From the NCBI RefSeq assembly GCF_006345805.1, contig NC_043007.1:33108001-33172000 (forward strand): DNA of 64,000 bases, read 5' to 3'. The notes under the pieces were generated by a model, which did not search any database, was not told the origin of the DNA, and was given only the letters and a program-made list of their open reading frames with translations. Positions within the stretch are counted from its first letter, which is position 1; each line of letters begins with the position of its first letter. This document shows positions 1,087 through 56,867 of the stretch, piece by piece. This DNA comes from Octopus sinensis. Lineage: Eukaryota. A program made the position numbers and the translations under genes.

Positions 1087-1127
1087 TGAACGATATTTCG
1101 ACATCTCGTGTGTCTTCCACAGGTTCA
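1087..1127 (-). ncRNA. Minimal type-I hammerhead ribozyme motif, CUGUGGA core
   Basis: tgaac-CTGTGGA-a-gaca(cacgaga)tgtc-GAAA-ta-TC-gttca: 5-bp stem I, 4-bp stem II, AUAU palindromic stem III. Confidence 0.65.
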
Positions 1128-1279
1128 AAAAATAAACTTGTCAATCTTCTTCATTTTGGTTAATTTATCGTTCACTTGACAACAATGGCACTCTTCTATT
1201 TTTGTTTCTATGTCTTTGGATGACTTACCTCAGTCCTATATATATTGACCAAAATGAAGGAGATTCACAAGTTTTTTTT

Positions 1280-1320
1280 TGAACCTGTGGAAGACACACG
1301 AGATATCGAAATATCGTTCA
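1280..1320 (+). ncRNA. Minimal type-I hammerhead motif (stem II mismatch)
   Basis: tgaac-CTGTGGA-agacacacgagatatc-GAAA-ta-TC-gttca. Duplicates lie at 1631-1671(-) and 1826-1866(+). Confidence 0.6.
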
Positions 1321-1467
1321 CTTGATAACAATAGCACTCTTCTATTTTTGCTATTATTATTACTACTATTATTATTATTATATTATTATTATTATATTAT
1401 TTTTATTATTATTATTATTATTATTATATTATTATTACTATTATTATTATTATTATTATATTATTAT

Positions 1468-1498
<31 letters not shown>

Positions 1499-1559
1499 CA
1501 TTATTATTTATTATTATTATTATTATTATTATTTATTATTATTATTATTATTATATTAT

Positions 1560-1897
1560 GAATATATAGGATTAAGGTAACTCTTCCAGAAGATATAGAA
1601 CAAAAATAGAAGAGTGCCATTGTTATCAAGTGAACGATATTTCGACATCTCGTGTGTCTTCCACAGGTTCAAAAAATAAACTTGTCAATCTTCTTCATTT
1701 TGGTTAATTTATCGTTCACTTGACAACAATGGCACTCTTCTATTTTTGTTTCTATGTCTTCTGGATGACTTACCTCAGTCCTATATATATTGACCAAAAT
1801 GAAGGAGATTCACAAGTTTCTTTTTTGAACCTGTGGAAGACACACGAGATATCGAAATATCGTTCACTTGATAACAATAGCACTCTTCTATTTTTGC
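1560..1897. mobile_element. Hammerhead-containing unit, copy 2 (tandem duplication, ~545 bp period)
   Basis: Near-identical to 1015-1351, including the flanking TTA tract. Confidence 0.75.
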
Positions 1898-1912
1898 TAT
1901 TATTATTACTAC

Positions 1913-1956
<44 letters not shown>

Positions 1957-1970
1957 TATTATTATTATTA

Positions 1971-2013
<43 letters not shown>

Positions 2014-2015
2014 CA

Positions 2016-2507
2016 TTCAGTAGTTTTATTTTTATAGCGTGCGTTCACTTCACTACCGAGCGCAGCTCTGTGTGCCTTAGGTATGTGCTGTGATTTGTTG
2101 TGATGCTCTGATGGTTATTGTATAGAAAGTGTTCTGCGTAGGATGTGTGCAGTGCCTAGTAGTGCAATTTTCTGTATGTTATATGTGTTTGTAAGTCCTG
2201 GTGTTTTTGTTATGTATTTGTCTGAATATTTTTTTATCATGCCTAATGCACCTACTATGATAGGAATAGTTTCTGTTTTTAGATTCCACATTCGAGTTAC
2301 CTCTATTTCCAGGTCTTTGTATTTTGAGAGTTTCTCCATTTCTTTTAGAGACACGTTGTCATCTGCCGGTATTGATACATCAATTAGAAAGCTTTTTTTT
2401 CATGATCTCTGACCACTATATCTGGTCTGTTGGCCTTAATTTCTCTATCTGTGTGTATCGGCATATCCCAGAGTATGGTTACTTTCTCGTTTTCTGTGAC
2501 CTTTGGT
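2016..2507 (-). mobile_element. R4/Dong-like (restriction-like endonuclease) non-LTR retrotransposon, 5'-truncated 3' end
   Basis: ORF 2115-2354 KE.EKLSKYKDLEIE..PIIVGALG..IQKIALLGTAHILRR, with upstream RPDIV and LIDVSIP motifs. Flanked by (TAA)n on both sides. Confidence 0.85.
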
Positions 2508-2539
2508 TATTATTATTATTATCATTATTATTATTATTA

Positions 2540-2600
<61 letters not shown>

Positions 2601-2602
2601 AA

Positions 2603-2755: not shown

Positions 2756-2758
2756 ATT

Positions 2759-2896: not shown

Positions 2897-3509
2897 GGTA
2901 GTAGAAATTTCTAAAATTTGTATTACTCTGATATTATTAATTATACATATATATATACATTTGTGTAGTCTCTCACCCCCATATGTATATATGTACATTA
3001 TTAGCGTGTGTTTGGTTTTGTTTGGTTTTTTAATCCTCTGGTGAAATATTAAGCTTCAGAAAATTAGCTTTATCAAGTTGTGTCCCAAACACAAGCGAGA
3101 CAAGCACATTGGCAATTGGCGCATACACCTCGCTCCACAGTGTAATTGAGCTGATGCAGATATTGCCTTTTATTCAATGACACCATGATTAATTCATTGT
3201 GGAGAAGAACTCACAGCATGTGGAATTAATATTTTTGCTCCTCAATGCATGCATTGACCTTGAAAGGCAGCGGAAAATATCTGTCTCACAGAATATTAGC
3301 CGTTTACTGAATTATACACCGAATTCTATGGAATAAATGTATTAAATTTGCATTTTCGTAATCAACTGGAAACCATTTACATATTTAATGATTGATATTA
3401 ATGTTTTTAACACACACACACACACACACACACACATATTCAAGCAGATATGCATATCTGTCTACATATCTATATACATACACACATATACACATATTTA
3501 TATACGCTG

Positions 3510-3797
3510 AGAGTTTTTTATACGCTGAGAGTTGCTGAAGCATAGAACAGACTGCCGGCATCAGTTGTTAGTTGCCAGAGCACTGAATCCTTCAAAACTT
3601 CCATGCTTTCTGAGATTCGCCAACACTACACCTGATTTTCTCCCCTCCATACACACACAAGCATGTATCTGACTCATACATTGTTCGCTTTCCAGACATT
3701 GTTACATTACTGCATGTACTTTATATGCACTTTCTGACAAGTTGTGGTGCACCTAAGCACTGTATACAATAATTTCATTATTATTATTATTATTATT
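3510..3797 (+). mobile_element. CR1/L2-type LINE 3' end with (ATT)n tail
   Basis: Reads ..TLRVAEA*NRLPASVVSCQSTESFKT, resembling the CR1 ORF2 C-terminal motif RVVNAWNSLP..SFK. Confidence 0.6.
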
Positions 3798-3869
3798 ATA
3801 CATATATTTATTCGCATATTTATGTATATGAAAAGAGAAATGCGTGGAGTTGTGAGCATTAGTCAAATA

Positions 3870-4435
3870 TTGGGTTGTCCGGAAAGTTCGTGCCGATTTG
3901 TAAAGGAAAGAAAAAGGTCCATAAATACTTGCCATTACATTTTTAATCAACCAAATATGAACCATTTTGTTGCACAATGCGTCTCCATCTTTCCTTTAAC
4001 TTGAAAATACCCCCTTCCCAGAATTCAGGTGGTTTCATGGCAAAGAATTCATCAAGGTATCTTTTTACGTCATTCAAGGAATTGAAATTTTTACCATTAA
4101 GACTATTCTGCAGAGACCTGAATAAGTGGAAATCCGAAGGAGCAATATCTGGTGAATATAGAGGGTGGGGTAACACATCCCAGCCGATCTGCTGCAATTT
4201 TTGTCTGGTTCCCAAAGCCTCAAGTGCCGAAAATGAACTTTCTTATCTTCCATTTTATATGGTTACAGAATTAAAATAGGTTATAGGAACATAAACCTTC
4301 TTCCATGAAAAGATAGCTTAAGCTGTGCTCTAAATGGAGGTGTAGTGAAATCCTATTTTATGCACTCAACCATGTTCTAAAATAAGTCGAAAGGTAAGCT
4401 ACTATAAATCAGCTCGAACTTTCCGGACAACCCAA
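3870..4435 (-). mobile_element. Mariner non-autonomous deletion derivative
   Basis: TIRs ttgggttgtccggaaagttcg / cgaactttccggacaacccaa with TA duplication. Transposase C-terminus HPLYSPDIAPSDFHLFRSL. Confidence 0.93.
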
Positions 4436-5821
4436 TACATTGATAATGTATTTCTAAACAAATCCAAATTAAACGGCCTCATAGTTCTACTTTAAACTAA
4501 AGCAAAAATAAATATAAAACGTACAATTTCAAAACGAATGAAATGACACCATATTAAATCATGCTTATTCATACCTGGGACATTATTATCTTCCGGTATG
4601 TTAAATGAATTGAAAACCAGACATATCTATTACTTCTCAATATCGTTTAGAGATACTTTATTCAATTTTGGAATTGATTCTTCGATTAAAAGGAATCACA
4701 TCTACTATTGGTCCTTGGCATCAACATCCAGTTGATTAGTCTTAACCTTTCTGGTACGAAAAACTAATCGAAGATTGCAGAGAACAGGGATGGCATATCG
4801 AGTTTTACCACCTGGCAGTGGGTGCTAGCGGCTTCATTGAAAGAAAGATGACAACGCTTTGTTTTTTCTAGCTCGGAGCTGAGAAAACTACAAGGAGTGT
4901 ACAGGAGGCGGTCGAAAAAGCCAGCTTCTATATATATGGCTGAAGCGGGAAGACCTAAGATGGTTTGAAAGTCATAACATGCCGGCGGAAAATAACACCA
5001 CTAGGTGAGACAAGATGACACTAAATTAGCTTCACTGACTGACAGGTGACGGTCGTTTAGAGAATGCGTGAGCTAAGACTACGCGCCTTCATTGGTCAGT
5101 TAAAGTTGAGGCAGTTGAGGCCAGGGAACAAAAGAAAGAAGAAAAAGACATGCACCCAACACCAGAGCTGAAGACACCGCCGAAAGGTGGAGGGGGCGCC
5201 ACGTCAAAATGGTAGAGTAGTAGGGGCCGAAACCGGACGTGGTTCCTCCTGATGATGTCTTAAGCTAACTGGATCCTATAAAGGAGCTGTTGTGGTAGCA
5301 GACCACGAAACACGGTTGAAATTCCTTGCTTACGTTAAGCACACGTTTATATTATACCGGCGCCATAATTGTATTTTAGAAAGAGAGATGCGTTTATTTG
5401 GTTAACTTATACCCCAGGAAACTAGCTATTCAAATAATCCTGGTTATGTATACACCCACTGCTGTAGTGAATTGGAGGATGAGATGTGGTTAACAGGATT
5501 GAAATATCGGAAGATTCGAAGAAATATTCTCGTATGGTTTCGTTGAGTGCTCCACAATTTTGTGTTTATAAATGAAATCCAAGTTCTGCTGGAGCGGAGA
5601 AGTCGTAATGTTCACAGATACCAGGTCGATCTGTGCAGTTGCCGAGTTGTAGCCAAGAGTTCGCAAAAGGCTAATCGGGACGCCATCATGACGAGAGGAA
5701 GACGATTTATTTAAACGATTTGTGCCAAAACAGAGAAGAATAGTGCAATCAAGAAAGAATTGAAAGTGCATTGCCGCTAGCGATGTATAACAATATCAGA
5801 TAATCTGATTGATACAGTGAC

Positions 5822-5996
5822 ACATACATGCATACATATATACATACATACATACATATGTACATACATATATACATATATACATACATACATATGCACA
5901 TGCATATATACATACATACATGCATACATACATACATACATACATACATACATACATACATGCATACATCTATACATACATACATACATGCATACA

Positions 5997-6027
<31 letters not shown>

Positions 6028-6569
6028 GTACATAAATATATACATACATACATACATACCTATACGCATATACGCGTAATATAGAAAATATATACGTAGA
6101 TATGCATATATGTATATGTATATAGATGTATGTATGTATGTATGTATTTAAACATGTATGTATTTATGCGAATACATATACGCACACGCAAACACGCGCG
6201 CACACGCGCACACACGACACACGTATATAAACATTGTCCTGATGGTGGGGTGGTGGTACTGAGAAAGCCTTCATCTGATCCTCGCCCATATGGAAACTAT
6301 ACGCAGTGAATTGGGGTCATATATTTATGTGCTTGTGTGTGTTTGTATTTACGCATGCGTGTATATACATATATACATACATATATACATACACACATAC
6401 ACACACACACGTATATATATACACACACACACACACATATATATATACTCACACACACACAAATATATACATATACAAAAATACATACATACGTAAGTAC
6501 GTACTATATATTCATACATATCTTACATATACCCATACGTACACCCACACGTACATATATAAATGTGTG

Positions 6570-6616
<47 letters not shown>

Positions 6617-6654
6617 ATGTGTGTGTGTTGTGTACCTATCTACATGTATATATG

Positions 6655-6688
<34 letters not shown>

Positions 6689-6697
6689 CATGTGTGC

Positions 6698-6737
<40 letters not shown>

Positions 6738-6780
6738 AATATATATATACACACACACATATATATATATACATAAAAGT
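5822..6780. repeat. (CATA)/(TA)/(CA) microsatellite complex
   Basis: Direct sequence. Confidence 0.9.
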
Positions 6781-7207
6781 ACATATAGATGAATAAATCA
6801 TACACTTCTAAGAATGTATATATTCTTTGTGCTTATTTTTACTGTTATTCGTGCGTAATGGCGTGTCTTAGGTTTCGTACGATTTCAGAAACCAGGAAAG
6901 TGATTTATTTCTTTCCGGGTCACGAATAACTAGTACCAGTTAAACTCTTTAGTAAGTGGAGGCCACTATTAAATTCCTAGTGTATTCATAAATCAAAATG
7001 GCTAACATTCTGCACAAACTTGAATTACAGTTCCCGTATATTTCACATTAATAAACGTAAGGGAATCAAATCAGATCGATATCAGCAACAAGAACACTAT
7101 ATCGGTTCGACTGCACCGGTGTTTGAATCCCAGTGTAATAAACGCGCACATATCCACATATGTATAGTTTAAATTATAAATATTTTATAATTATCGGAGA
7201 ACTTATG

Positions 7208-7342
7208 GTGGCAATAGTGTCTTTTGACGTCTGTTTTTCAGTGCGTGGTGAGGCGCAAGCCAAGCCCTTGTTATAATTATATATATAGTTTTAAAATATT
7301 TATAAAAATTTACCTACGAGGTTTTATTTCCACGCTGACCAC
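7208..7342 (+). ncRNA. Unassigned five-helix structured RNA motif, instance 2
   Basis: gtggc/accac; aatagtgtc/gacgtctgtt; ttt; cag(tg)cgtgg/ccacgctg; ggc-gcaa-gcc; acct/aggt. Confidence 0.5.
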
Positions 7343-7489
7343 ATGGTAAAAATCACTTATGATTTTACCCTTTATTATTGCAGCGTGGAAGTTTTCATTC
7401 CAGCACACGATCTCAGATCAGGTCACTTGCTATGCAAGTACATCTCCGTAAACACATAATAATTATTATTTTAAATTACAAATATGTAT

Positions 7490-8640
7490 GTGCTAACTGC
7501 TAACTGCGTGTGGCAATGCTGCTGGCTTCATGATAAAACCAAGACTTATCTACTATTCCGCGAACCCGAGGGCCTTCAAAAGTATGAATAAAAATCTGCT
7601 GTCTATCCACTGGATACCCAACCCCAAGGCCTGGATTACCAAAAGTCTAGCTTTGAATTGGTTCCACCAATGTTTCATCCCTCAAACCAAGGGATACCTC
7701 CAAAATGTATACATGAAATTCAAGGTGTTGCTTGTTATGGATAATGCTGGTAGTCACTCTTTGGATTTGAATCAAGAGGGAGTTCAAGTTGAGTTCCTCC
7801 CTGCCAACACAACATCCTTCATCCAGGCTATGGATCAAGGCGTGATCCGTGCCTTCAAAGCACTTTACACCCAGAACTCTCTCCAACACCTTATGGAGGC
7901 AATGGATTCGGACGAGAATTTCAAGTTATAGGAGTACTGGCGTAACTTCATGATCACAACGTGCCTGTCAATCATCCATGCTGCTCTTGAAGACATGAAA
8001 AAAACCCTCATCGCATGCTGGAAGAAGGTGTGGCCAGAGTGTGTCCAGAACTTCGAGCGTTTTTCACTTGAAGATATTCAGCACGAGGCTGTCAACAATG
8101 GGGTGAAACTGGCAAAGCTGTTTGGTGGCGAAAGTTTTGATGATATCACACAAAATGAAGTGAAAGACCTCATCGATGCCCAGTCTGAAACCCTGACAGA
8201 CGAAGATTTGTTGGAGTTAACGAGGTCTGCCAGCGAAGAGGAGGGGAAGCGCCAGATCCAGAGGAAGAAGGGATGGGATGTGCCTGGCAATCGAACGTCC
8301 GTCCAACGTTTTAAGGACAGTAAAGGAATTGCAATATATGGTTCGGTCTCTAATTTAAAAATGCCATCGATGCTGCCGTGCAGATATATAAAACTCTCTT
8401 CATCACCATGAGGAAACAACGACAGCAACTCCCCATCACAATGTTCATCAAGCCCACCAACGAAGATACGACATCCCCTAAAACACCTGAAGAAGAGGCG
8501 TCACCTGAAGAGCTTTAAATCTTCTTTGCTGCGCAGTCATTATCTTCCTTATTTTCATCATCATCGTCTTAAATCAATATTATTCATTATTGGTGAGAAA
8601 CAGTACATTTTACTTTAATGTTTATTAAATTATTATTAAA
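7490..8640 (+). mobile_element. pogo/Tigger transposase pseudogene (DDE_1 region)
   Basis: KVLLVMDNAGSH..VEFLPANTTSFIQAMDQGVIRAFKALY, with a stop at 7931 and frameshifts. The probable right end resumes at ~9285-9392. Confidence 0.88.
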
Positions 8641-8649
8641 TATTGTATA

Positions 8650-9241
8650 TCTATTATATAAAATCCGTTCTGTCTGTGTGTGTGTGTGTGTCTTCTAGGA
8701 TCTCGGGCATCCTCCATCCGATTGCGCTCAAATTTTATATGTAGATAACGACGGTATCAGGGCGTGTATAGGTTTTGATAAAAACACAAAAATCGATTCA
8801 AAATGAGAATGCGATCGATAAAGCCGTGGGAACGTGCATTTGTACGTACAAATATATATAAATATATATAATCCGTCCATCTAGATTTACCTCCAGCTAA
8901 TCCGTTTGCATGCATCGGTTTTGTCCTGCTTTTCTTCCGTCAACCTGTACATAACTGCACCTTCCATTTTTTGTTGTTTTTGTGTTCTCCCAGTCAACAG
9001 CCTTATCATTACTGGTACTTTAAACTCTTCGGTTGCATATTTGTGTGAATGAAATGGTTTTTCTTTGGAATAGAAAAAAAGTCTATCTTTATTTCTTCTT
9101 TTGCTGGTGTCTCAAATTTAGGTTAAATCAGTGTTTCTCAAAGGGGAGGCCTATGGGACGGTCAGACAAGTTGTTTTGAGAAAATTTGGTTTAAATGTTA
9201 GACAACTCAGCACCGTCCATTGGACGGGGGGCGTTTTGCTC

Positions 9242-12505: not shown

Positions 12506-12552
12506 ATAATATATATATAATATATATAATATAATATATATATTACATATAT

Positions 12553-13300
12553 AAGATAAGAAAATGGAGAAATACATCTAAATCAAATATCAATTACCAA
12601 ATACTCAATCACATACTTTATTAAACCACCACATAAGAGACTGTAGGGTTAAATATAAAAAGCAGAACAAATCAGTGTACATAAAGGAATGTACATAAAA
12701 AAGTGTACATAAAAGAGTAATGTTGTATAATAAGTAGAATATATATAATCTCCGAAGAGGCCTTGTGATATTTTTGTTAATGTCTCATTTATATCTATAT
12801 ATTGACCAACTATAAAGGGCTTAATATTGGTAAAATGAGACATAATTATCGACATGGCCGAAACAGCTGTAAGATCTAATTTATACTTATATTTATATTT
12901 ACTTGTATTTATATTCTCTTTTATATATATTCTACTTATTATACAACATTACTCTTTTATGTACACTTTTTTATGTACATTCCTTTATGTACACTGATTT
13001 GTTCTGCTTTTTATATTTAACCCTACAGTCTCTTATGTTGTGGTTTAATAAAGTATGTGATTGAGTATTATCCGGTAATTGATATTTGATTTAGATGTAT
13101 TTCTCCATTTTCTTATCTTGTATTAGTAATTTGTGGTAAATCATTTTACCTTTGCCCATATAATACAGTAAATGAATTGATTGCATAGCAATCATTAACA
13201 TTTATGTATTAACTTTGTTGGGTACTTCACTAGCAGTATATTGGATATATGTTATCCCATAGAGGGTTGCATTTACAACCCCTTTATCTCAATTTGTAAC
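12553..13300 (+). mobile_element. Penelope-like element end (pLTR) with ~195-bp inverted duplication
   Basis: 12553-12748 is the near-perfect reverse complement of 12921-13119. A hammerhead lies between the arms, and the element is embedded in (TA)n. Confidence 0.75.
12748..12875 (+). ncRNA. Type-I hammerhead ribozyme, CCGAAGA core, ~100-nt stem II
   Basis: atct-CCGAAGA-ggcc..atgtctcattt..aaatgagacat..ggcc-GAAA-cagctg-TA-agat. Confidence 0.72.
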
Positions 13301-13502: not shown

Positions 13503-13719
13503 AAATAATGTGACAGTTATTCGGTTGCTATAATAAAACTCCGAGTTTCGGCTGTCGGGGCGGAAATCTGCTCCGGCATCTCGTCAGTTATTAAGAGAAA
13601 ATATACCATTTTTGCTTTGTTTTAATAACTGACGAGATGCCGGAGCAGATTTCCGGCTCGTCATCCGAAAATCGGAGTTTTACTATGGCAACCGAATAAT
13701 TGTCACATATTATATTACA
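13499..13719. mobile_element. ~96-bp inverted repeat with a hammerhead-like motif in each arm
   Basis: 13499-13594 pairs with 13622-13719. aataa-CTGACGA..GAAA-ctcggag-TT-ttatt at 13532-13592(-), with a mismatched copy at 13624-13684(+). Confidence 0.7.
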
Positions 13720-19619: not shown

Positions 19620-22600
19620 ATGCTACAATAAAATGCATAGGGCAGACCATCCAGCCCTGGAGATTTGTCCCCGGTGTACTCAGCCAGCATCTCATTGACC
19701 TCCGCAGCCGTAATCGGTCCTCACAGCATTACGCCTCCAGTGCTGAGAGTCGCGGCCCGCCGTCGAGGAAGTCACTAAGGGGCTCCCCACGGTCCAGCCT
19801 GTCGCTCTCTCCGAACAACCGGGCGAAATGCTGGTGAAAAGGCTTTTGCATCTCCTCCTGTCCTTCCATAGAACGCCCATGTTCGTATGTTAAAGACTTG
19901 ATACAGGCTTCTCTGCCTCTCTGACTCTCCACACGACGTGCCCATCCGGCAACGTTAATACACTCTCTCCCCATTGCACGAAGTTTACCTCTAACCCTAC
20001 ACCCATCGTGACTGGCTTTGAGATGTCGGTACAAAACCGCTTTCGCCGCCACCACTCTGGATGCAGAGCCAGACACCATGGTTTATCTAATTCCTTAGTT
20101 AAAGCCCCTTCTATTCCAGTCTATCTAGACTTTACTGCTTGCTTATTCTAATAAACTCAGAACGAATGGCGCGTTTGAGGGCACACCACCACCTATTATT
20201 AATAATGGTGCCGGTTAATGCCCTCTGCACTTAATCCTTAACCCGGGCATAGAAGGTTCTAGAAGTCAAAATAGACTTGTTCATCTCCCAGTACCCTGGT
20301 CTCTGCCTATAACACTTAACTAAGTACACCCTACGCGTCACAAACTTGTTATCCGTGTAGGGGACACAACAAAAAGCGTGGACAACTAAACGTATTCCTA
20401 TCTCTATCCTATTGAATATCCTATCTATATAAGATCTGAGTGAACCGTCGTTATTAGTCCACGTCCACTGTGGAACGAACGGTTCACCTAGTCTATAACG
20501 GTCTACTAGATTATAGTTTTCTCGTAGCCTTTAGGGGCCAGGTTTTCCCCTTCTATCAGTTGAGCCAACACTATCCCAACGTGCAACTAGAGTTTTTGAC
20601 GTCATTAAGAAGTTCTCTAGGTCCCGGTAAAAGCCAGCCTGTCTACATTGTTTTGGTGCGTACAGAGCAACCAACCTGAAGGACTGTTTACTTACGTGTG
20701 TCACATCCAAATTGACCAGCCTACCTTCAGAAAGACTGTTTGCACTTCCAAGTTTTTTCCTGAATAAGACCGCTACTCCCTCTCCCGCCGACTAGGAGAA
20801 ATACATTTCTCGTAGCCATTTAGAAGGGGCGAGAACGCTTGTGGTCCGCTCAGCTTGGACTCCATTACAGCACACACATCTATATCTAGTGGCCTAAGGT
20901 CGTTCAGGAGACAAGTTTGTTTCCATTTCGACCCTAGGCCACGCGCAAATTTGCACCCTAGCTTAATCGCCATAGTATATCGTACTTACATTTTTAGTTT
21001 GGAGAGGAGCTGCACGAATTCAGCTTTCTACCCATCCTTTTCCTTCCGTGGTATAGCCACTGGACTCACCATAAAACTTTTGCCGGCCATCTCTTGGCTA
21101 ACGTACTTGATGTCATCGGAGTACTTACTTTTCAATTCTGTAAATAAGCCCACCTCCATCCTAGCAATCCTGATGTGAGGCGACATGTCTTTGCTAGCTT
21201 TGTATACTTGAGCTCTATAGTGAGCTCGAATAATTCTGGAGAGTGGTGGGTTGTTATCATTAAATGACACAATTTTGTTGTGTTTTGGGGTGGGATTGGG
21301 AAATGGGTTTTAAGCAGGGGATGGTGTGGGGAGTTTTTTCTTGTGTGTCTGTAGTAGCTTTCGATGTATTTTTTTTTGTATGAGGAGGGGAGTCTAGGGC
21401 TGAGGCCTTCTTTATTTTGGGGGATCTTACTGTTGTAAATTCCATTCTTCTGTGATTTGTGGTGTCTCTTGTCTTGTTTGTTTAATTTCTTTGTCGGTTT
21501 TTTTTTCTGTTGATTTCCTTTCTCCCCTTCGTTTTTTTTTTTGTTCCTGTTGGGAAGGGGCTTCACTCTTCTTTACATTCTGAGCGGACGTGACCTTTTT
21601 CGCCGCACATAAAGCAGCGCGGTGTCTGCCCCTCAATGCCAATTCTTACACTCAGCCCCTCCCCTTCGGGGACTTCCGGACTAGCTTGGACCACAATCTC
21701 AATGGTCTGTTCCTTCCAATTCTCCGCTTCCTTTTTTTTTGCATTTGTAAAATTATCATCCTCTGCTCCATGTCGCTATTTATATCACATCTAAGCCCGC
21801 CGGAATCTTCTCTACTTTAATTTTGGCAGATCGTTTACCCAAATACGTTGGTAACAATATTATCTCTTCGTAACTCAACGTCAGGGTAGACATCTCCTTT
21901 TCAGAGTTTCCGTCTGCGAATTGCGCCTCGACCGTGGCATTCCTTCTTCCACAGCCGACGCACTTTATTTTATTCCAAATTGGTGCTAGACATTTCTCTA
22001 TTATCTCGTTTTTACATGACATAATTGTTTTTCCTTAACACTGTATGTTTTATATACAACCGTTTTTGCTGCTATGTTTTGCACTATCTCTTGAGGATGG
22101 AGCAACTTTGTGTCATTCTCCGTTTACTTTACCAGATTTCTGCATTTAAACAGCTCGTCCATTGTTACGTCTAATATCACCATGTTGCAGCCGACCGCAA
22201 CCGAAATCTTGGTCTCTCCTTTTGCACGTGTTTTACAATATCATTTTCGTTTTCATTTAACTTTTCCATTTCAGGGAAATCCACTTTTGACATCAAATCG
22301 CAATCCATAACGAAAAGTTATTACCAAACAAATTCCTTCAAAAGAAATAAAATTTGACACAAAATTAAGTTTTTCAAAGATGTTTGAAAAAAAAAAAAAT
22401 TTTTTGCCAAAATAATGTTTTAACAAAATAAATTTTACCCTGTAAAGGGCAAAAATTGAAATCACTGTTCGCCAACAATATTCTAAATTTTCAGCCCCGC
22501 AGGGCGAAAATTACAGTCAACAGACTAACAACAGTTCAATCTTCGCAAGTGCAATAACAATAAAACATTAGATGAATATCAAATCTGAGCTCACAAACGC

Positions 22601-22625: not shown

Positions 22626-23266
22626 GTAGTAGAGATGGAGTTGCCCGCTTCTGCTAGCTGTAGATACAAATATATAATTTTAAGCGACATACAGTCGTTG
22701 ATTTTGCAAGATGCAAAATATGCTCATTCTAAAATCTCTCTAAGAGATCAACGCAGTAGTTGTACTAACAAGTAGTGTTCGTAGCCACTTCAACATGGCT
22801 GTCCGTTCGAAGAGAATTTACTGCGAACTTTTAACCCCAAAGAGGACACCTCCTCTAGCTTGTTAACGATCCACAGCTGCATTCGAGACATTGCGAGCAG
22901 GGGAACGAATCTTTACCACCTTCTAGCGACGGAACCAGCTAAATTTAAGTAACTATGTTCCCTAACTGGCAAAATTCGCTGCAGAGAAATATTTTCTACA
23001 GAATTGTTTCCGGTATTTTAGCGCGCCAAAACGAAGACTTTTGAAAGATACATGTTCAATCTCATGCGGACGTCTCGTGTATTGTTCTTCAAATTATATT
23101 TGCAATGACGATCATACTGAGGAGCTACGGATAATTACGTAAGTAATTTGCGTAAGTGTTAATAGCGAAACTAGTTTATGATTAATTTATATTTTGTTTC
23201 TTTTCATTTGTCTTGCTCGCTTATGTTCTAGCGCTTGCTAAATTTTCTTGAGAACATTCCTTTCTT

Positions 23267-25934: not shown

Positions 25935-26135
25935 TAGTTGAAATATATATATATTTGAAATTTACAGGAAACAAAAGACGAAAACAGGTGTATGAACAAC
26001 AAGCAGGTGTATTTGACGCTCGGGTGAAGGGAAATGTCATTTACGTTTTGAGCTTACGCTCTTCAACAGAGAGGAATAAGAGAAAATAGAGAGAGAATGA
26101 AAAAAACTAGTAGATTTAGCAGTCAAGCATGGCGA
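25935..26135 (-). mobile_element. Penelope-like end with a mutated hammerhead (26038-26073)
   Basis: Reverse complement ctctCTGTTGAagagcgtaagctcAAAAcgtaaatg. Homologous to 26395-26610. Confidence 0.6.
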
Positions 26136-26394
26136 ATGATTAAAAAACAAGTTTGAGAGAAGAGGTTCAAAGAAAGGGAGAGAATAATGTGTTGTGATCC
26201 CAAATGAAGGCGTGCATGCGTGTATGCGTATGTGAGAATGGTGTGTGTGAATGCGTGTGTGTTTGCGTTAAGAGAGGCTATTCTGACGTAAGTGTATGCG
26301 TGTGTAAGTGTGTTTGTGTGTGTAAATATATATGGATAAATATGTTTGTATATATATATATATATTTAGATATATATCTAGATATATATCCAGA

Positions 26395-26610
26395 TCGCCA
26401 TGTTGATTCGCTAGCCTCTGCACGCATTTTTTTTCTCTCCTTGTTTCTTTCTGTGTTTCTTTTCTGTGTCTCTTTCTGTTGAAGAGCGTAGGCTCGAAAC
26501 CTAAAAGGCTTGTTTTATTTATATTCCTGAGCGCTATACTAATACAATTGTTTGTTTGTATTCCACCTGCCTTCGTCTTTTGTTTATTTTCATAAAGCTT
26601 CCCGTTATAT
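26395..26610 (+). mobile_element. Penelope-like end with a hammerhead motif (26472-26507)
   Basis: cttt-CTGTTGA-a-gagc-gtag-gctc-GAAA-cc-TA-aaag. Confidence 0.65.
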
Positions 26611-27024
26611 TTAGATATATATGTATAAACGCCTATCCTCTCAACACATGGCTATGATACTCCGTCACTACTTCTGCTCTTGATTAGAGATGCACATATC
26701 ATCAGACACTTTGGTATATGCTCAAATGATACTTATTTTACCTACCCCGAAAGGGGTAGTCGGAATTTAAACTCATAACGCAGCGACAGAAGTATTGGCG
26801 GAGCATCATAGCCGTATGTTGAGAAGATGGGCGTTTATACATCCATTTTTGTTAACGATTATATTTGGTACTTCTCTTGCTGTGTTGCGTGTTCGTTCCA
26901 GTTTTTGCATCTGAGATTTTATTTTTAATCTTTGTAAATGAATATATTTATTTCGCTTTGCTGCTTTTCTCTTTACAAAATAAGAACATACATTGCGGAA
27001 CTGTTATTTTAACGAGTTGTGTAT

Positions 27025-27138
27025 ATTTATCACCCGATGAGACACATCTGCACCGCCGGACGCTCCTCAACAAGTTGTTGAGTCTCCCACCCGTGAGGGA
27101 TCGATGCTGGATGTGTCGAAACAACTGTCGTGATTAAT
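27025..27138 (+). ncRNA. Type-I hammerhead ribozyme, CCGAUGA core, branched stem II
   Basis: atttatcac-CCGATGA-gacacatc..gatgtgtc-GAAA-caactg-TC-gtgattaat, with internal hairpin ctcaaca/tgttgag. Confidence 0.75.
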
Positions 27139-27240
27139 AATAAGTTCTCGCGTATTGCATCTTCCGTCTTTCATTAACAACCATGTACATTGTTATTTAC
27201 ACACCTGTCCATGTCTTTAGCTTTTCTGTAAATTTCAACT

Positions 27241-27282
<42 letters not shown>

Positions 27283-27559: not shown

Positions 27560-27788
27560 TGTTGTGTCTAGGGAGAGTCATTTTCATTTTGTGCCTTGTA
27601 ATTTAACACACTCACCGGTAAAATTTCCACTTATTCTTTATTTTTATATTCCTAAAATTTTCGTTGCGTCTTGCAACCTTTTCAATAGTCTTGACACTTT
27701 TCAAAAATAAGAAATAAGTCGAAACTTACCGGTGAGTGTGTTAAATTATAAGACACAAAAAGAAAATGACTCTTCCCAGACACAACAG
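27560..27788. mobile_element. ~87-bp inverted repeat enclosing a minus-strand hammerhead variant (27652-27688)
   Basis: 27560-27646 pairs with 27702-27788. cta-TTGAAAA-g-gttgc-aagac-gcaac-GAAA-at-TT-tag. Confidence 0.65.
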
Positions 27789-29494: not shown

Positions 29495-29700
29495 GTCGCC
29501 ATGATAGATTGTTAGCCGCTACACACATTTTTTTCTCTCCTTGTTTTTCTCCTTGTTTTTTTCTGTGTCCCTTTCTGTAGAAGAGCGTAGGCTCGAAACG
29601 TAAAAGACTTTTTTCTATTCCTGAGCGTTACACTAATACATGTGTTTGTTTTGTACACCACCTGTCTTCGTCTTTTGTTTTTTTCGTAAACTCTCCCTGT
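29495..29700 (+). mobile_element. Penelope-like end with a hammerhead motif (29571-29606)
   Basis: cttt-CTGTAGA-a-gagc-gtag-gctc-GAAA-cg-TA-aaag. Ends in (TA)n. Confidence 0.68.
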
Positions 29701-30122: not shown

Positions 30123-30310
30123 TATGTGACCAGGTGTGTATCGTTGGCGATTTTCCTTCTCCTTGGACCTTTCTTTTTTTATGTTTCTGACGAAGAGATC
30201 CGCTCGAAACGTTAAATCCTCCTTCTTTCTTCCTTTCCGAGCGTCCAATGACACTATATTTGTTCCACGTCCTCGTGTTGTGTTTTCTCTTTGTTCATGT
30301 TTGGATTAAC

Positions 30311-30891: not shown

Positions 30892-31248
30892 CTAAATTAC
30901 GCAAAAATGAAAATAGCACTGATATCTCATTTTAACACATATTTATCAAAATTACATAAAAATATCTTGAAATACTAATGAGTAAATGTATTCAATAAAA
31001 TCGACATTGACTTCAACCAAGGCTTCCAGATGACTTCTGAATCTCCTGCAACTCGTCTAGATGGTCTCGTTCTTTAAGTTGCTGAATGCTGCCATAATCT
31101 TTGCCTTCATTTCTTCTTTGGTGTTTCAAGGAAGTTTGTTGGTCTCTCGCTCAACTGTCCTCCACCCATAACAAAGAAGTGGATTGCAGTCGGCCGAGTT
31201 AGGTGGCCAGATGTTAGTGGTGATGTGGTCACAAATTGTCTGACAGCC
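30892..31248 (-). mobile_element. Tc1/mariner-superfamily transposase C-terminal remnant
   Basis: HITTNIWPPNSADCNPL..WRTVERETNK..NTKEEMKAKIMAAF (WPP.SPD.NP motif). Confidence 0.75.
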
Positions 31249-31467
31249 GAAACGACCACTCGGAAGGCTTCCACGACAGTGGAGTTACGATTTCAGGATG
31301 GTTATTGGAATCTCGTGGATGAGAAAGGCGCGATCCAGAGAGGAGTGGATAGCGTGCTGTGACCAGCGGTGTTAAATGGACGCCCGACGGACTGGTCGGT
31401 CAATGTGATATTATTATATGAGTGAACGCCAAGTAAGTTTTTACTCTATTACTCTATCTCTCTCTCT

Positions 31468-31517
<50 letters not shown>

Positions 31518-32244
31518 ACTATATACACATATATATACTGTATATGTAGATAGAGATAAACACCCCACGTACATAATCTAGATCAAAGAATGAAGATGAC
31601 AACAATTCAATGAAAAAAATTACTGAATATTAATTTATTAATTTAAATTCCGACCTTATTGCTGACGGACTGTTTCTCTGTGTTATCGCTGTATCATCAG
31701 AGAGCAAAACAATCGAACAAACTGGTTTCATTATATGTACATAGGTCTTATTTAAAAATAATATAAGAGAGCCAAAACATTGGTGGAAGGAATTTTATGA
31801 ATATGTTAAATAGAAGAGCTGAGTTTGAATAAATCACCATTCGTCAGAATGATCATCTCCGTAATGTTATTTTCTATAAGTTTATAATTGAAAACAAAAC
31901 TAATAATATCATACGAGACTGTTTGTTAAGTGTAATATCTGCAAAAATCTAGTCTTGCAAGTAAAAGAATCGGCATGTAATCTATAGAATCTTGTTTAGA
32001 ATCGTGTTTAGAAATAGTCCTAATAGATTTAAACTGTATTATCGTTCACGAAGTATATTTGAAAATATTGAAATAATGAATTTTAAAATAAATTTCTTCT
32101 GAAAGGAGCATTATTGAATCCTAGGGGTGAATTACTAAATAGGTTTTTTATGTTAATTAAATAATCACGAGATTTTCATGAGTTTTAGCTATTTATAAAA
32201 ACCGAAGTTTTATACTGAAGGAAGTTTCATGCATATACACTGTT

Positions 32245-40553: not shown

Positions 40554-40593
<40 letters not shown>

Positions 40594-40599
40594 TGTGAC

Positions 40600-41034
40600 G
40601 TATATTTGCCATTTAAATATAGCTAACCCCTAAGTGTGGATGCTACTGTAGTTTGTAGCCCCAGGAGGACAACTCCTCCAGCTGGCTATAGACACAGTTT
40701 CTGTGCCTTATCAGTATTTGCAAAGGGAAGCCATCCTTCCCGTCTTCAACTTATGATACACACGGACTCGAGTTTCTGGATATTGACCCGCCGTGAAGGG
40801 AACCTACTTTTCATCGACAACTGTGATTGTCACACGCCGATGACGGGTCAATACTCAGAAACTCGAGTCCGTGTGTATCATAAGTTGAAGACGGGAAGGG
40901 TGGCTTCCCTTTGCAAATACTGATAGAGCACAGAAAGCGTGTCTATAGCCAGCTGGAGGAGGTGTCCTCCTGGGGCTACAAGCTACAGTAGCATCCACCC
41001 TTAGTGGGTAGCCATATTTAAATGGCAAATATAC
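40600..41034. mobile_element. Penelope-like pLTR with ~190-bp inverted duplication
   Basis: 40600-40790 pairs with 40844-41034. Confidence 0.78.
40831..40875 (+). ncRNA. Type-I hammerhead ribozyme, CCGAUGA core
   Basis: cacacg-CCGATGA-c-gggt-caat-actc-a-GAAA-ctcgag-TC-cgtgtg. Confidence 0.75.
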
Positions 41035-42879: not shown

Positions 42880-42951
42880 TCCTCGGTAGTATAGTGGTAA
42901 GTATCCTCGCCTGTCACGCGGGAGGCCGGGGTTCGTTTCCCCGCCGGAGAG
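42880..42951 (+). tRNA. tRNA-Asp(GTC), variant or possible pseudogene
   Basis: 72-nt cloverleaf tcctcggtagtatagtggtaagtatcctcgcctGTCacgcggg..ttcgtttccccg..ccggagag, with TTTT ~9 nt downstream. Has a C:A acceptor mismatch and A58>T. Confidence 0.75.
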
Positions 42952-50724: not shown

Positions 50725-51917
50725 GTGAGGCACGCTTTCCCGCAGCTCGTCTCATGACCGCTGCAGTCGTGGATCAAAAAGAGGCCGAGGAAGGGCGAAT
50801 GGCACCGCGATGTCGCTTTGCTCTCAAGCAACTCTGCCGTCCTGGGTCGACCTTAAGTGACTTCAACACAACCAAAGCATTCTATAGAGGTTTAGTGGGA
50901 GGGAGGGGTACTACGACGAGCTCGGGGCGAACCTGGACGTCGACGAGGAGTACCTGACCCGCCTGTCCGGGACGACTTTCGGGCCAGGGCCCATGGACAA
51001 CTTCCAGAGATCCCTGGCCTGGCAGTGCTACCGAGAAGCGCTACCCGTTCGGGATAAGCTCTACAGACAACGGCTCGAGAAACACGGGCCCGACCTGCCC
51101 GAGATGCGGTCAGAGCGACGAAACCGTTCTGCACGCACTCGTTCATTTCCAAACATTTCCGACCTGTGGGCCTTGGTGTCGAACACTGCTGTCACGTGTG
51201 GGACGAGTCGGTTTATCAGGCTGAGTCTATCGTCAATATTGTCACGCCCTCCTTCCTTCAAACGGGAAGGAAGAGCTATTTTCATCATCCTTGTGGCTAT
51301 GGCGAAAGAATGTATCTGGTGGACGCGTCTGAAAGGATTGGAGACAAACACTTTCCTCTCTGGTCATCTCTCATCAACTTCTTCAAGTACCACTTGAAAA
51401 GGAAAGTGAGAGTAGAGGAGGCAGTTTTGTCTAGCGAATGTTTTAAAAAAAGATGGGGAATGTAGCAAGAATGTGCACGTTTAATGACGAAGCCACCTGA
51501 GGCATAGTTCCCTATGAACCAGAAATCGAAAACAGAGAGTTCTTTGCAAAAAAAAAAAAAAAAAAAAAAAGAAATATAAAATGTGACTTCATTGACCGAG
51601 GTTACCGTGGCTTTTCCGCAGGCTTTTCTTTCCACGGGTAAACCTCACCTGTCCTCCCCTTTTACACTTCATATTGGACATTCTGTGATAACGATCCTAT
51701 TGATCATTTTTTTTCCTCTCTCCCCCCCTTTATTTTTTTTTTTTTTTTTTTTAACCCCCCTTATTTTTGTCCTCTTTCTCTCCTTTACGATCCCTTTGGA
51801 ATCGAACCTCCCCCTTCCTTTTTTTTTTTTTTTTTTTTTAATAATACCTTTCAAAAGAAAAGCTCTACCTTGTATTTGTTCTGTCTGTGTGCAGCCCTGT
51901 GTGGCTAATAAAGAAAC
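50725..51917 (+). mobile_element. Tx1/L1-like LINE, 5'-truncated 3' end (zf-RVT/CCHC region plus 3'UTR)
   Basis: RSLAWQCYREALPVRDKLYR, then frameshifted CPRCGQSDETVLHAL. TCTA repeats on both flanks. A second 3' fragment lies at 52070-52186. Confidence 0.85.
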
Positions 51918-52652: not shown

Positions 52653-52686
<34 letters not shown>

Positions 52687-53030: not shown

Positions 53031-53097
<67 letters not shown>

Positions 53098-53426
53098 AAT
53101 AATAATAATGATGATGATGATGATAATAACAATAATAATAATACATGTGGACGAAACAAGTTTGCTCATATTTATCTGAATTCCAGCAGACTGCGACACT
53201 TTTCTTAAAATATTCGTAAAAGCTGTGCAGATATAAAGGACCTAGGAATAGAGATGATTATTGCTGCTGTTACAGTTGTTATTGTTGTTGTTGTTGTTGT
53301 TGTTGCTGTTGTTGTCGTTGTTGTTGTTGTTGTTGCAGTCAATGCTGTTATAGCTATTACTGACCATTACTACGACGGTGATACTGCGTAGGCTTTGAGT
53401 GCGAGTGGTAGTAGTGTTTTTGACTA

Positions 53427-53898
53427 CACCTCAATTTAGAGCACAGTTTAAGCTATCTTTTCGTGGAAGAAGGTTTATCTTCCTATAACCTGTGTTAATT
53501 CTGTAACCCTTTAAAATGGAAGATAAGAAAGTTCATTTTCGGCACTTGATGCTTTGGGAACCAGACAAAAATTGCTGCGGCTCGGCTGGGATTTGATACC
53601 CCATCCTCCATATTCACCAGATATTGCTCCTTCGGATTTCCACTTGTTCAGGTCTCTTCAGAATAGTCTTAATGGTAAAAATTTTAATTCCTTGGATGAC
53701 GTAAAAAGATACCTTGATGAATTCTTTGCCATGAAACTACCTCAATTCTGGGAAGAGGGCATATTCAAGTTAAAGGAAAGATGGAGACGCATTGTGCAAC
53801 AAAATGTTTCATATTTGGTTGATTAAAAATGTAATGGCAAATATTTATTGACCTTTTCTTTCCTTTAAAAATCGGCACAGACTTTCCAGACAACCCAA
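53427..53898 (+). mobile_element. Mariner deletion derivative (same family as 3870-4435), left end missing
   Basis: HPPYSPDIAPSDFHLF; right TIR aactttccagacaacccaa|TA. Confidence 0.9.
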
Positions 53899-54302
53899 TA
53901 TAACCCACCTGATTATGAGCCATGTCTCATGCGGCCCGCTTCGCTCAAAATGGTTCCCTGTGTGTTGCTTTAATGATTCTAACAGGTCGCCGCCTCAGTC
54001 CAGCTAAATGTAAATAACACAAGAGGTTTTGTTCGATGCTCCGTTGATTCGGAGGGCTAATATTCTGTTGAAGACTTAATGGAAAAGTCAACCTTGATGG
54101 GGACCTGTCTTTGCAGAACGCAAAGAAACAATGAAGACACTAGTGATGAGAAGACGAAGAATGAATAAAGAAAGACAAAGAGAAAGGAAGAAGAAAAGAA
54201 AGAAGGAAAGAAGGAACGAAAAAAGAAAGAACAAACAGAAAACAACAAAGATAAAGATAAACAAGATTAGTGTCATTTAAGTGGAAAGAGACAGGAGAAT
54301 TC

Positions 54303-54344
<42 letters not shown>

Positions 54345-55005
54345 TGTGTGTCTGTGTGTCTGTGTGTCTGTCTATCTGTCTATTTGTCGCTCTCCTTTCT
54401 ATATATATATGCATGTGTATGTGTATGCGTGTATGTATGTATTATATACATACATACATACAGACAGATTATTCAGACATACATACAATAATATACACAC
54501 ACATGCAACTATGCGTATGTATGTATGTATGTATGTATGTATGTATGTATGTATGTACGCATGTATGTATGTATGTATATATTATGTATGTATGTATTTG
54601 TGTGTGTGTGTATGTATGTGTGTATGTGTGTGTGTATGTATGTATGTATGTATGTGTGTATGTATGTATGTATGTATGTATTCATGTATGTATGTATGTA
54701 TGTGTATGTATGTATGTATGTATGCATGTATGTATGTATGTGTGTATGTATGTATGTATGTATGTATGTATCTTTCTTTCTATATCTCTCTTCCTCCGCT
54801 TGCCACATTTTATCTCCTTTATGATATTTCCCACCCCTCTCCCTTTCCGCTTTCTCTCTCTCCCTCTCTCTCTTTCTTTCGCTCTTTCTATATATTTTTC
54901 TCTCTCTCTCTCTCTCTCACTCTCTCTTTCTCTATCTCCCTTTCTCTCTCTCTTTCTTTCTCTCTTTCTCTCTTTTTCTCTCTCTCTCTTTCTCTCTCTT
55001 ACTCA

Positions 55006-55036
<31 letters not shown>

Positions 55037-55084
55037 CCTCTTATTGTCCTTCTTACTCTCTTACACATATGTATGTATACACAC

Positions 55085-55395
55085 ACACACCGGCACCATC
55101 AACACCGCCGCCGTCACCATTTGCACCGCCGCCACCACCATTTGCACCGCCGCCGCCGCCGCCACCATCAGCACCACTACCGCTGCCGCCACCCACCCAC
55201 CACCACCACCAAAACCACTACCAGTACCACCACCTCCCCACCGCCGCCGCCGCAACCGCTAGCACCAGCACCATCACCACCACGTCACCACCGACACCAG
55301 CACCACTAGCACCACCTCCGCCGCCGCCACCGCCGCCATCACCCCCAGCACCAGCAACGCCGCCACTACCAGCAGCACCAGCACCGTTACCACCG
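55085..55395. repeat. (CCA/CCG)n low-complexity tract after GT, TATG and CT microsatellites
   Basis: Direct sequence. Confidence 0.9.
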
Positions 55396-55806
55396 TTTCG
55401 AAAGAACAAATTTGATTGATTGTATCATCAGGACATCGTTCACTTCTGAAATTGTTTCCTGATTACATGGGTTGATTGGGTTAAGCGTGTTTCAAGATAC
55501 GGAGTGTGAGAGTGATGTGAGGGCTAGTTTATCATTCCTCAGCTGAAGGAACATTTCGGGAAAGAGAAAATAAGGAAAAATAATGTAAAAAAGAAAGGAG
55601 AAAAGAAAAAAGATTAACAAATTAAGTAAGAAAATAACTAATATTTTAGATGACTTTCGAATTCATTTTTTGGTACTTTGCGTCGGATTCGAACATGGAG
55701 ATGCGAATCGTTGTGTGACATCAGCCAACGGAATCCGGACTAATGAATCTAACAAAAGCCGAAACTCTTGCTTACTATCTCGACGAATAAACCATTTGTT
55801 AACCTT

Positions 55807-56018
55807 AGTGCTGAAATGAACTTTCTTATCTTCCATTTTAAAGGGTTACAGAATTAACGCAGATTATAGGAACATAAATCTTCTTCCACGGAAAGATAGC
55901 TTAAACTGTGCTCTTAATGGAGGTGTAGTCAAATCCTATTTTATGGACTCAACCATGTTCTAAAATAAGTCGAAATCTAAGCTACTATAAATCGGCACGA
56001 ACTTTCCGAACAACCCAT
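55807..56018 (-). mobile_element. Mariner left-end fragment
   Basis: Matches 4222-4435. Confidence 0.88.
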
Positions 56019-56149
56019 TAGGAATTTTGAACGAAGTGCCTATAAAACTAGTTTTTAAACATCGAATGGCTACAGGGATCTACCAGAATAAAATAGTAAT
56101 GAAAGGGGTCTATAGGTTGATAACCGCTGATTTAGGGTGTTCCACTTGG

Positions 56150-56630
56150 TATTTGTAGCTTCGTGTAGAGCAGTTTGTGACCTCTTGTCGGTACTAAGAT
56201 CTCTGTAGAGTCTAGTTCTATTCATGTAGTAGGCATGATCTACCCACCCCAGGTGACGTTTGATGACAATAACCTCAGCAAGAAAACTTCAGCAAAGCTG
56301 CGTGGAAGCGGTGTTAGACTTGGCATGCAGACCACCATATTACTTGCTTGATATTGCGTTTTTATTCTCTTCTTTCTTTTTATTTTGACATGCACATTTC
56401 GTGTTCATTCCTCTTTTTCCGATTCCTACTCAAAGCTGTTTACAGATCACAGTCATCTCTCGTGGGGAGCGCTTCGCGCTTCGATGTTTGTGAAATAATA
56501 TTAGCTTTGGTCTGCTCGAGGACTGCAACGTTGTTGACATTATGCTTGGGCAGTAAAACATTCTCCAATTTGGTTTGGGATACAAGGTGGGTCTGAGTAG
56601 CAATTTATCATATACTTTCTCTCCAGACGA
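56150..56630 (-). mobile_element. Degenerate RTE-like LINE remnant
   Basis: NVNNVAVLEQTK and EVIVIKRHLGWVDHAYYM resemble RTE C-terminal motifs. Confidence 0.4.
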
Positions 56631-56821
56631 AATCCTAATTCTTCAATTTTACGATCAGTGGTTCCCATCCACTTTTTTTTTTACCTATGGACCTCTTTGA
56701 TTCTTACTTTCCTCTTAATACCTAATAAACATAGGATGTTTTTAAAATATTCATTATATTTTTATAATTAAATGCTATTATATTTTCACTAGCTTAACAC
56801 AACGTTTCGAAATTTCCCCAA

Positions 56822-56867
56822 GACACCTGAAGAAGGCTGGAGGGTATATCAGCCGAAACGTTCTGTT
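56822..56867 (+). ncRNA. Minimal type-I hammerhead motif in a Penelope-like end (56794-56955)
   Basis: gacac-CTGAAGA-a-ggctg..cagcc-GAAA-cg-TT-ctgtt. The inverted 16-mer at 56794-56809 preserves gtgtt. Confidence 0.65.

Follow-up and report, generated by a model that had tools for sequence, protein, structure and literature searches.

Hammerhead motifs in a 64-kb octopus window

The DNA analyzed here (the window) is a 64,000-nt stretch of the Octopus sinensis genome (RefSeq assembly GCF_006345805.1, contig NC_043007.1, positions 33,108,001 to 33,172,000). It is AT-rich (GC 0.30-0.45) and dense in microsatellites and transposon debris, and no obvious genes were found among the reading frames scanned. 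Repeats that look like short interspersed elements (SINEs) are abundant in it, and we take these to resemble octopus repeats. Also present are many folds with the shape of a hammerhead ribozyme, which a first-pass annotation had described as about 16 motifs from several unrelated families and which we relate to Penelope-like retroelements (PLEs). The folds are genuine and belong to a known kind of motif, and they are probably undocumented in this host.

The strings described in that annotation are present at all 16 of its coordinates. Twelve of them pass a relaxed type I descriptor (core CYGWNGA or UYGWNAA, 4-bp stems I and II, GAAA, a palindrome and UH) with at most one defect. Three others are decayed family copies: 13532(-) passes at two defects, 13624 is its inverted copy (87% column identity), and 26038(-) is a copy of family E that carries G12A. 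The last, 31659(-), is unsupported; this doubtful motif H (31660-31704, minus strand) has a canonical core, a 2-bp stem I and a stem II that is not intact, and it is excluded from the count. One motif had been overlooked, 23117(+), with a canonical core and a 7-bp stem I. The number of motifs is inflated relative to the number of events. Because the motifs at 1087, 1280, 1631 and 1826 are one inverted pair within a 545-bp tandem duplication, the whole set reduces to about 12 insertions in nine families (A, B, C, D, E with E2, F, G, I and J). That the families are unrelated holds, as they share no sequence by BLAST inside the window, with the exception of 27190-27278, which resembles the 3' end of E.

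The short class of motifs (A, E, E2, G and J) has an extra base after A9, a stem II of 4-6 bp and a 4-nt palindrome. Family A has a defect-free motif at 1088-1126 (minus strand), with the palindrome AUAU and the core CUGUGGA, in which U replaces A at position 6 (A6U). Head-to-head with it, at 1281-1319 (plus strand), is a second A6U motif with one mismatch in stem II. The 3' part of a further unit (1166-1243, plus strand) is joined head-to-tail to the next unit, with a period of 146 nt and no open reading frame (ORF) between. The motifs at 1632-1670 (minus) and 1827-1865 (plus) are copies within the tandem duplication (939-1480 and 1473-2029). Its halves are 95% alike overall. Most of the difference lies in microsatellite length and single indels, and the aligned parts of the element differ by single indels; the duplication is possibly recent, or an assembly artefact. 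Family E is found at 26472-26507 (plus; core CUGUUGA, A6U, palindrome broken), at 29571-29606 (plus; core CUGUAGA, A6U, otherwise free of defects) and, with A6U, G12A and a broken stem I, at 26038-26073 (minus). The first of these lies in a non-coding unit of about 225 nt (26395-26620, plus) that has a (TA)n-like run at its end and is highly repeated in public runs. Subfamily E2 (30183-30217, plus) has the canonical core CUGACGA and is the sole exact match to the descriptor published in 2014 (PMC4209133; here and below, the sources named by an identifier are cited from excerpts). Family G (27651-27689, minus) has the published U3-A8 type of core (UUGAAAA), the palindrome AAUU and an inverted copy at about 27700-27787. 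Family J (56823-56866, plus) has the canonical core CUGAAGA and one mismatch in stem I, and a 16-nt inverted stub just upstream (about 56795-56810) holds the pairing letter. Just downstream of J, a hairpin with a 7-bp outer stem occupies 56880-56936; a DUF3800-II match beside the motif (E 4.1) was dismissed as weak and probably due to chance.

The long class (B, C, D, F and I) has palindromes of 6-9 nt, with a structured insert in stem II of B, D and F. Family B (12748-12875, plus) has the core CCGAAGA, with C in place of U at position 4 (U4C), a hairpin of about 100 nt as stem II, and an 8-nt palindrome; an inverted, 5'-truncated copy of its 3' region (12542-12748, minus) is 96% identical to 12921-13130. 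Family C consists of 13533-13591 (minus; canonical core CUGACGA, two defects, odd-length palindrome) and its head-to-head partner 13625-13683 (plus), which has an extra base before GAAA and a decayed palindrome. In this plus-strand copy (13630-13662), pairing is possible between the core strand and part of the stem II insert, and the ribozyme would then be blocked; the partner copy lacks this pairing. Family D (23110-23183, plus) combines the canonical core CUGAGGA and the 7-bp stem I with a long stem II and the palindrome ACUAGU. A match to Ada_Zn_binding upstream of D was below threshold (E 0.0015, 18.9 bits against a cut-off of 23) and was set aside. Family F (27030-27133, plus) has the core CCGAUGA (U4C) and a 10-bp stem II with a branched insert; the E-like stub at 27190-27278, right after this element, is probably a separate truncated insertion. 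Family I (40833-40873, plus) also has the core CCGAUGA (U4C), with an extra A before GAAA, an 8-nt palindrome, and an inverted truncated copy at 40592-40790.

Cores are canonical in C, D, E2 and J, U3-A8 in G, U4C in B, F and I, and A6U in A and E. Families C, D, E2, G and J carry the standard core of minimal hammerhead ribozymes, or min-HHRs (CUGANGA or UUGANAA, GAAA, UH); the A6U and U4C families have one core substitution each and are variants, not standard members. With stems I and II of at least 3 bp each around the core, 13 distinct motifs show the min-HHR type I topology. Position 6 of the window matches in the descriptor scan is A three times, U four times, and C or G in none.

Standard models miss these motifs, as the first-pass annotation had anticipated. 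No hammerhead was found by Rfam at gathering score in the whole window, where the only two matches were tRNAs, or at E<=10 in focused scans of 26380-27240 and 56700-57000. The matches listed at E<=10 for the whole window (150 of 333) were tRNAs and microsatellite-driven miRNA models. The exact 2014 descriptor finds one motif (30187), one more when given its U3-A8 core (27685), four when given A6U, and none when given U4C, because of its loop limits.

Could the motifs be chance matches within AT-rich repetitive DNA that is rich in inverted repeats? Motif 31659 probably is such a match, and descriptor hits at 12774 and 18138 were dismissed as chance. The relaxed cores were picked after the motifs had been inspected, so that the descriptor was loosened to data already seen. 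In addition, a scan for core and stem II only stays near background. The YYGWNRA core, which had been suggested as a check, gave 18 matches compared to 13.05 +/- 3.42 in block-wise dinucleotide shuffles of the window when stem II was at least 3 bp, and 11 compared to 5.0 when it was at least 4 bp. The signal therefore depends on the whole anatomy, which is clearly enriched. At most one defect was found in 14 descriptor matches, compared to 0.32 +/- 0.59 (maximum 2) in 60 shuffles; these are 13 distinct motifs, since 12774 reuses the 3' half of 12752. Zero-defect matches to the full anatomy numbered 8, compared to 0.14 in 200 shuffles. Because the cores were relaxed post hoc, we used as controls features that had never been asked for. 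When neither the palindrome nor the G-C closing pair was required, the window gave 8 matches, the shuffles 0.4, and the reversed window none. All 8 have the closing pair G10.1-C11.1 (10% of 60 shuffle matches), and 6 have a perfect palindrome (7% of 60 shuffle matches), both misses being repaired by the majority letters of the population described below. Finally, 47 decoy cores with permuted letters gave a mean of 0.17 matches (maximum 2), and the real core gave 5. Shuffles, reversed window, decoy cores and the two unrequested features all oppose chance, as does the mending of the fold by majority letters. Chance is refuted for the 13 motifs, and we regard it as extremely improbable as an explanation of the set.

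Insertion context and the copies of families A and E

The motifs lie in a characteristic context. Within 450 nt on the 5' side, 11 of 17 motifs (6 of about 12 events) have an inverted copy, compared to 25 of 300 random sites, and within 150 nt on the 3' side 11 of 17 have a (TA)n or (TTA)n run, compared to 14% of random sites; the 17 motifs in these counts are not independent of one another. Both features had been noted in the first pass and both exceed the level at random sites. Inverted 5'-truncated copies and a (TA)n bias are given as hallmarks of PLEs (PMC8557442). The inversion breakpoints were ruled out as marks of the cleavage site, as they range from inside stem II to about 46 nt downstream.

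Families A and E look non-autonomous. The A unit is about 150 nt long, and its 3' end leads into the beginning of the following unit. A partial-tandem pseudo-long terminal repeat with a tail of 30-40 bp is among the features of PLEs; here a partial tandem is seen in family A, one arm of which is longer at the 3' end, and not in the other families. The E unit is about 210-225 nt long, and E copies start near the same octamer and diverge upstream. Contigs of four public runs were placed on 26385-27240 (25,505 contigs for run X1), and head-to-tail joins, in which the end of one E unit abuts the beginning of another, occur within single contigs of runs X2 and X4. In run X1 the summed contig depth of E is 3-10 million over 26414-26616 versus less than 1,000 at 26878-26935, values that do not equal copy number and are usable only as "highly repeated." An adjacent inverted-repeat element (26621-26842, also at about 28-135) that resembles a miniature inverted-repeat transposable element (MITE) is highly repeated in the runs as well.

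Majority letters in all four runs mend folds that are broken in the window. At 26501, C>G restores the ACGU palindrome of family E. In family F, 27125 C>T gives CAAUUG, and 27109 G>A turns a G-U pair of stem II into a Watson-Crick pair. This is what one would expect if the window copies had decayed from a structure under selection. The first-pass description of the stem III palindromes needs correction in two families: 27025 has CAACUG (CAAUUG by majority in the four runs) and not CAGCUG, and family C has the odd-length CUCGGAG and not CUCGAG.

Position 6 of family E lies at 26479, which is not among the differences listed (40 of 112) between the window and the runs, and the loose-end consensus is CUGUGGA ahead of the same stem II in all four runs. 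U6 is found in all three window copies of E, which are 70-82% alike, while position 7 varies (U or A in the window, G in the loose-end consensus). As the three copies are divergent, U6 is a state of the family and not the decay of a single copy. About 30 nt downstream of the predicted cleavage site, the sequence GAGCG (26529-26533, 29623-29627 and 30239-30243, and 26017-26021 on the minus strand) repeats the 5' strand of stem II and is invariant in all four E copies of the window. Pairing of this repeat with G12 and the 3' strand of stem II is possible, and it is predicted to displace stem II in two of the four copies, with partial displacement in a third (P 0.73, 0.99, 0.35 and 0.0). GAGCG could be an off-switch or the remnant of a duplication.

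We also looked for A6U outside of the octopus. A generic A6U pattern matched 118 loci in metagenome contigs (4 of 64 parts), 4 of them with both stems at least 3 bp, and by a rough estimate about one such two-stem locus was expected. Only one (locus L050, 1450-1535) is clearly a hammerhead, and U6 is sporadic there: the two arms of this head-to-head pair differ at position 6, one having A and the other U, a point against reading A6U as a family-wide state. The motif is nearly identical to the Acropora PLE row in Fig. S3 of PMC4209133. Sporadic A6U thus does arise. A further point against a family-wide state is that the copies of family A all derive from a single insertion. Visual inspection of eight translated A6U metagenome loci revealed no PLE ORF, and the family E pattern had no matches in the metagenome and viral contigs. 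Further hammerhead-like two-stem folds with U6 were seen in metagenome contigs of animal-like composition (L015:1495-1540, L103 and L107). No natural A6U hammerhead was found in the literature searched, among the 56 rows of Fig. S3 of PMC4209133, or in the supplement of PMC8557442, all as excerpted; other compilations of PLE hammerheads may list A6U or U4C. Of the features described here, family-wide A6U alone may be new.

The window contains several other elements. A frameshifted Tigger/pogo DDE transposase remnant lies at 7497-8411; its best named match is from Octopus vulgaris (74% over 7497-7928), with other animals at 66-71%. By eye, the stretches at 2030-2500, 19729-21775, 31040-31400, 50888-51465 and about 4880-5070 are presumably remnants of non-LTR retrotransposons (REL, L1-Tx1 type) and Tc1/mariner elements, and there is a zinc knuckle match at 21566-21775. 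The two tRNA matches above the Rfam gathering score (878-940 on the minus strand and 42880-42951 on the plus strand; 49 bits) are tRNA copies or SINE heads. A long inverted repeat with TTAGGG-like arms at 59770-59981 is MITE- or telomere-derived.

A probable Penelope-like origin and the possible meaning of A6U

We propose, at a probability of roughly 0.8, that the motifs are minimal type I hammerheads in the pseudo-long terminal repeats (pLTRs) of PLEs and in short non-autonomous derivatives of such elements. The fold, the palindromic stem III, the insertion context and the family structure are directly established, and the fold, anatomy and context bear out the suggestion that these are type I minimal hammerheads of the PLE kind. 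We postulate that a PLE reverse transcriptase (RT)/GIY-YIG endonuclease, acting in trans, would prime reverse transcription at (TA)n or (TTA)n, and that reverse transcription would usually stop after 100-300 nt and often switch template. The result would be a 3' stub with a hammerhead, accompanied by a truncated copy in inverse orientation. Where a precursor RNA is tandem, its two hammerheads would pair through the palindromic stem III, with stem I swapped, and may cut after UH; predicted cut sites include those after 26503, 29602 and 12871. Single or head-to-head copies such as those in the window would be unable to form a dimer in cis and would mostly be inert fossils. Families A and E would have amplified with U6; they probably cleave slowly or not at all, and their spread would not be limited by cleavage.

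Several results weigh against a PLE origin. Pfam found no RT or GIY-YIG domain in 298 of 316 filtered frames or in 18 stop-read-through frames upstream of five motifs, and a peptide-pattern scan of the window found no remnant of either. As no Penelope ORF was found in the window, the link to PLEs rests on anatomy; a missing ORF is expected for 5'-truncated stubs. The PLE consensus supplement of PMC8557442, as excerpted, contains none of four motif strings looked for in it, a weak test given its wrapped lines. The dimer-hammerhead fold is 7-17 kcal/mol above the cofold minimum for A, D, E, E2, F and G, and z is below -2 in only 3 of 13 monomer folds. Family B is the best-folding dimer candidate, at 2.6 kcal/mol above the minimum.

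Most copies in the window are probably inert. A transcript across a head-to-head pair would contain sense and antisense copies that pair together, so the genomic pairs are not the dimers. With many copies broken, and head-to-head pairs unable to yield a dimer in cis, the "ribozyme radiation" of the first-pass annotation was an overstatement. In published work, min-HHR monomers do not cleave and dimers show low cleavage (PMC4209133). A full scan of double mutants in a type III hammerhead found low activity for every change in the CUGA turn other than a C3-G8 swap (PMC9901934), and a natural A6C hammerhead cleaves at less than 0.1 per min (PMC3088659). By analogy, cleavage by the A6U families is probably slow or dead.

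Why, then, would U6 be found throughout two families? It is quite possible, at somewhat less than even odds, that A6U was a neutral founder mutation: a dead ribozyme would have hitch-hiked in master copies that do not need cleavage, and the fold would persist because the families are young. Sporadic A6U does occur elsewhere, as in the A6 and U6 arms of the metagenome pair. Moreover, Naiad PLEs thrive lacking hammerheads (PMC8557442), min-HHR dimers cleave poorly (PMC4209133), and eight of nine Xenopus retrozyme dimers failed to cleave (bioRxiv 10.64898/2026.07.22.740005). However, two families whose stems are unrelated both have U6, and U6 is common to E copies that are 70-82% alike while position 7 varies and the stems and palindrome are intact. 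A more tentative possibility, which we consider doubtful, is that A and E, two unrelated and successful repeat families, keep their helices, G10.1-C11.1 and the dimer palindrome under selection with U6 fixed. Either CUGU hammerheads would cut, in dimer form or assisted by a protein, or the fold would be a non-catalytic handle for dimerization or RT binding, with the GAGCG of family E as a conformational switch. It is unlikely, although worth considering, that A and E are retrozyme-like, that is, that units of 150-225 nt form head-to-tail multimers, are cut as dimers, circularize, and are reinserted by PLE proteins, with GAGCG shutting off the monomer of E. The head-to-tail join of family A at 146 nt with no ORF, the end-to-start joins of E in single contigs of X2 and X4, the common start of E copies that differ upstream, and the invariance of GAGCG in four of four copies, where it would out-compete stem II in two and partly in a third, are all consistent with such a cycle, and animal retrozymes have been derived from pLTRs (bioRxiv 10.64898/2026.07.22.740005). 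But no two complete same-strand units are arrayed in the window, the 545-bp duplication aside; the hammerheads are minimal and lack the loop-loop contacts that define retrozymes (PMC7229834); and A6U should impair the cutting that the cycle requires (PMC9901934).

If A and E are under selection with U6 fixed, cleavage at CUGU would break a rule of the hammerhead core, and either outcome, catalysis or fold only, bears on the role of hammerheads in PLEs. The sister subfamilies E2 (A6) and E (U6) are a natural control for selection on catalysis versus selection on the fold only. Published cores and loop limits find 2 of the 13 motifs, and counts based on descriptors or Rfam miss most of the motifs here; thus, much cephalopod sequence classed as "unknown repeat/SINE" may be PLE-derived. 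We take the genome to be about 2.7 Gb. If the window, which is a single one and was picked for its motifs, were typical of a genome of that size, the total would be 10^5 or more motifs, versus 3,000-9,000 per genome in PMC4209133.

Comparison with known systems

The bulk of what we observe is already in print, and as a novelty the first-pass claim of a very large and diverse set does not stand. PMC4209133 describes thousands of heterogeneous min-HHRs per metazoan genome, in many families and mostly solitary, including opposite-strand pairs 100-700 bp apart, U3-A8 cores, a small palindromic helix III, and an optional base before GAAA. The window motifs are like those PLE min-HHRs in their type I fold, 3-7-bp stem I, extra base after A9, G10.1-C11.1 pair, palindromic stem III of 4-8 nt, UH, and, in the short class, U-rich 5' flank. 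They are also alike in having many families per genome, solitary copies, opposite-strand pairs and, in family G, U3-A8. Family A differs from the Nematostella(1) row of that paper only in the stems and position 6. There are differences as well. A6U (A and E) and U4C (B, F and I) are found in none of the 56 rows of its Fig. S3, the stem II inserts of 35-90 nt in B, D and F exceed the 3-10-nt loop of its descriptor, no PLE ORF was seen beside the window motifs, and its species list, as excerpted, has no cephalopod. The role of PLE min-HHRs was called a mystery in a 2020 review (PMC7761336), and Naiad PLEs do without hammerheads (PMC8557442).

Families A and E resemble metazoan retrozymes in several ways: their units are short (150-225 nt) and non-coding, contain a type I hammerhead, show signs of head-to-tail joins, and presumably depend on PLEs (PMC7229834; bioRxiv 10.64898/2026.07.22.740005, which derives animal retrozymes from pLTRs). 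In contrast, retrozymes are tandem arrays of canonical hammerheads with abundant circular RNA (PMC7229834), whereas the window copies are dispersed or inverted, minimal, and known from DNA alone. Two or more consecutive complete hammerheads are not found, only the partial tandem of A and the 545-bp duplication with an antisense copy between, and the anatomy is minimal, with no Rfam hammerhead match and no loop 1-loop 2 contacts of the canonical type I kind. On these two points the families do not qualify as retrozymes, and the suggestion of retrozymes in the window survives only as short units with signs of head-to-tail joins.

In cephalopods, 235 Rfam Hammerhead_1 hits were reported for the giant squid (PMC6962438), unlike the window motifs, which are not detectable by Rfam. 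PLEs are abundant in Octopus vulgaris, and the repeat paper, as excerpted, makes no mention of ribozymes (PMC13282606). Of the non-canonical cores that had been singled out, U3-A8 and U4C are already published, and family-wide A6U gives that hunch some weight. U4C is known from a viroid, and current descriptors use CYGANGA (PMC13481778). Perreault et al. 2011 (PMC3088659) record U3-A8, U4C and A6C as rare, isolated occurrences among viroids and phages. Section 8 of that paper does not name A6U, which in the window is the state of whole repeat families.

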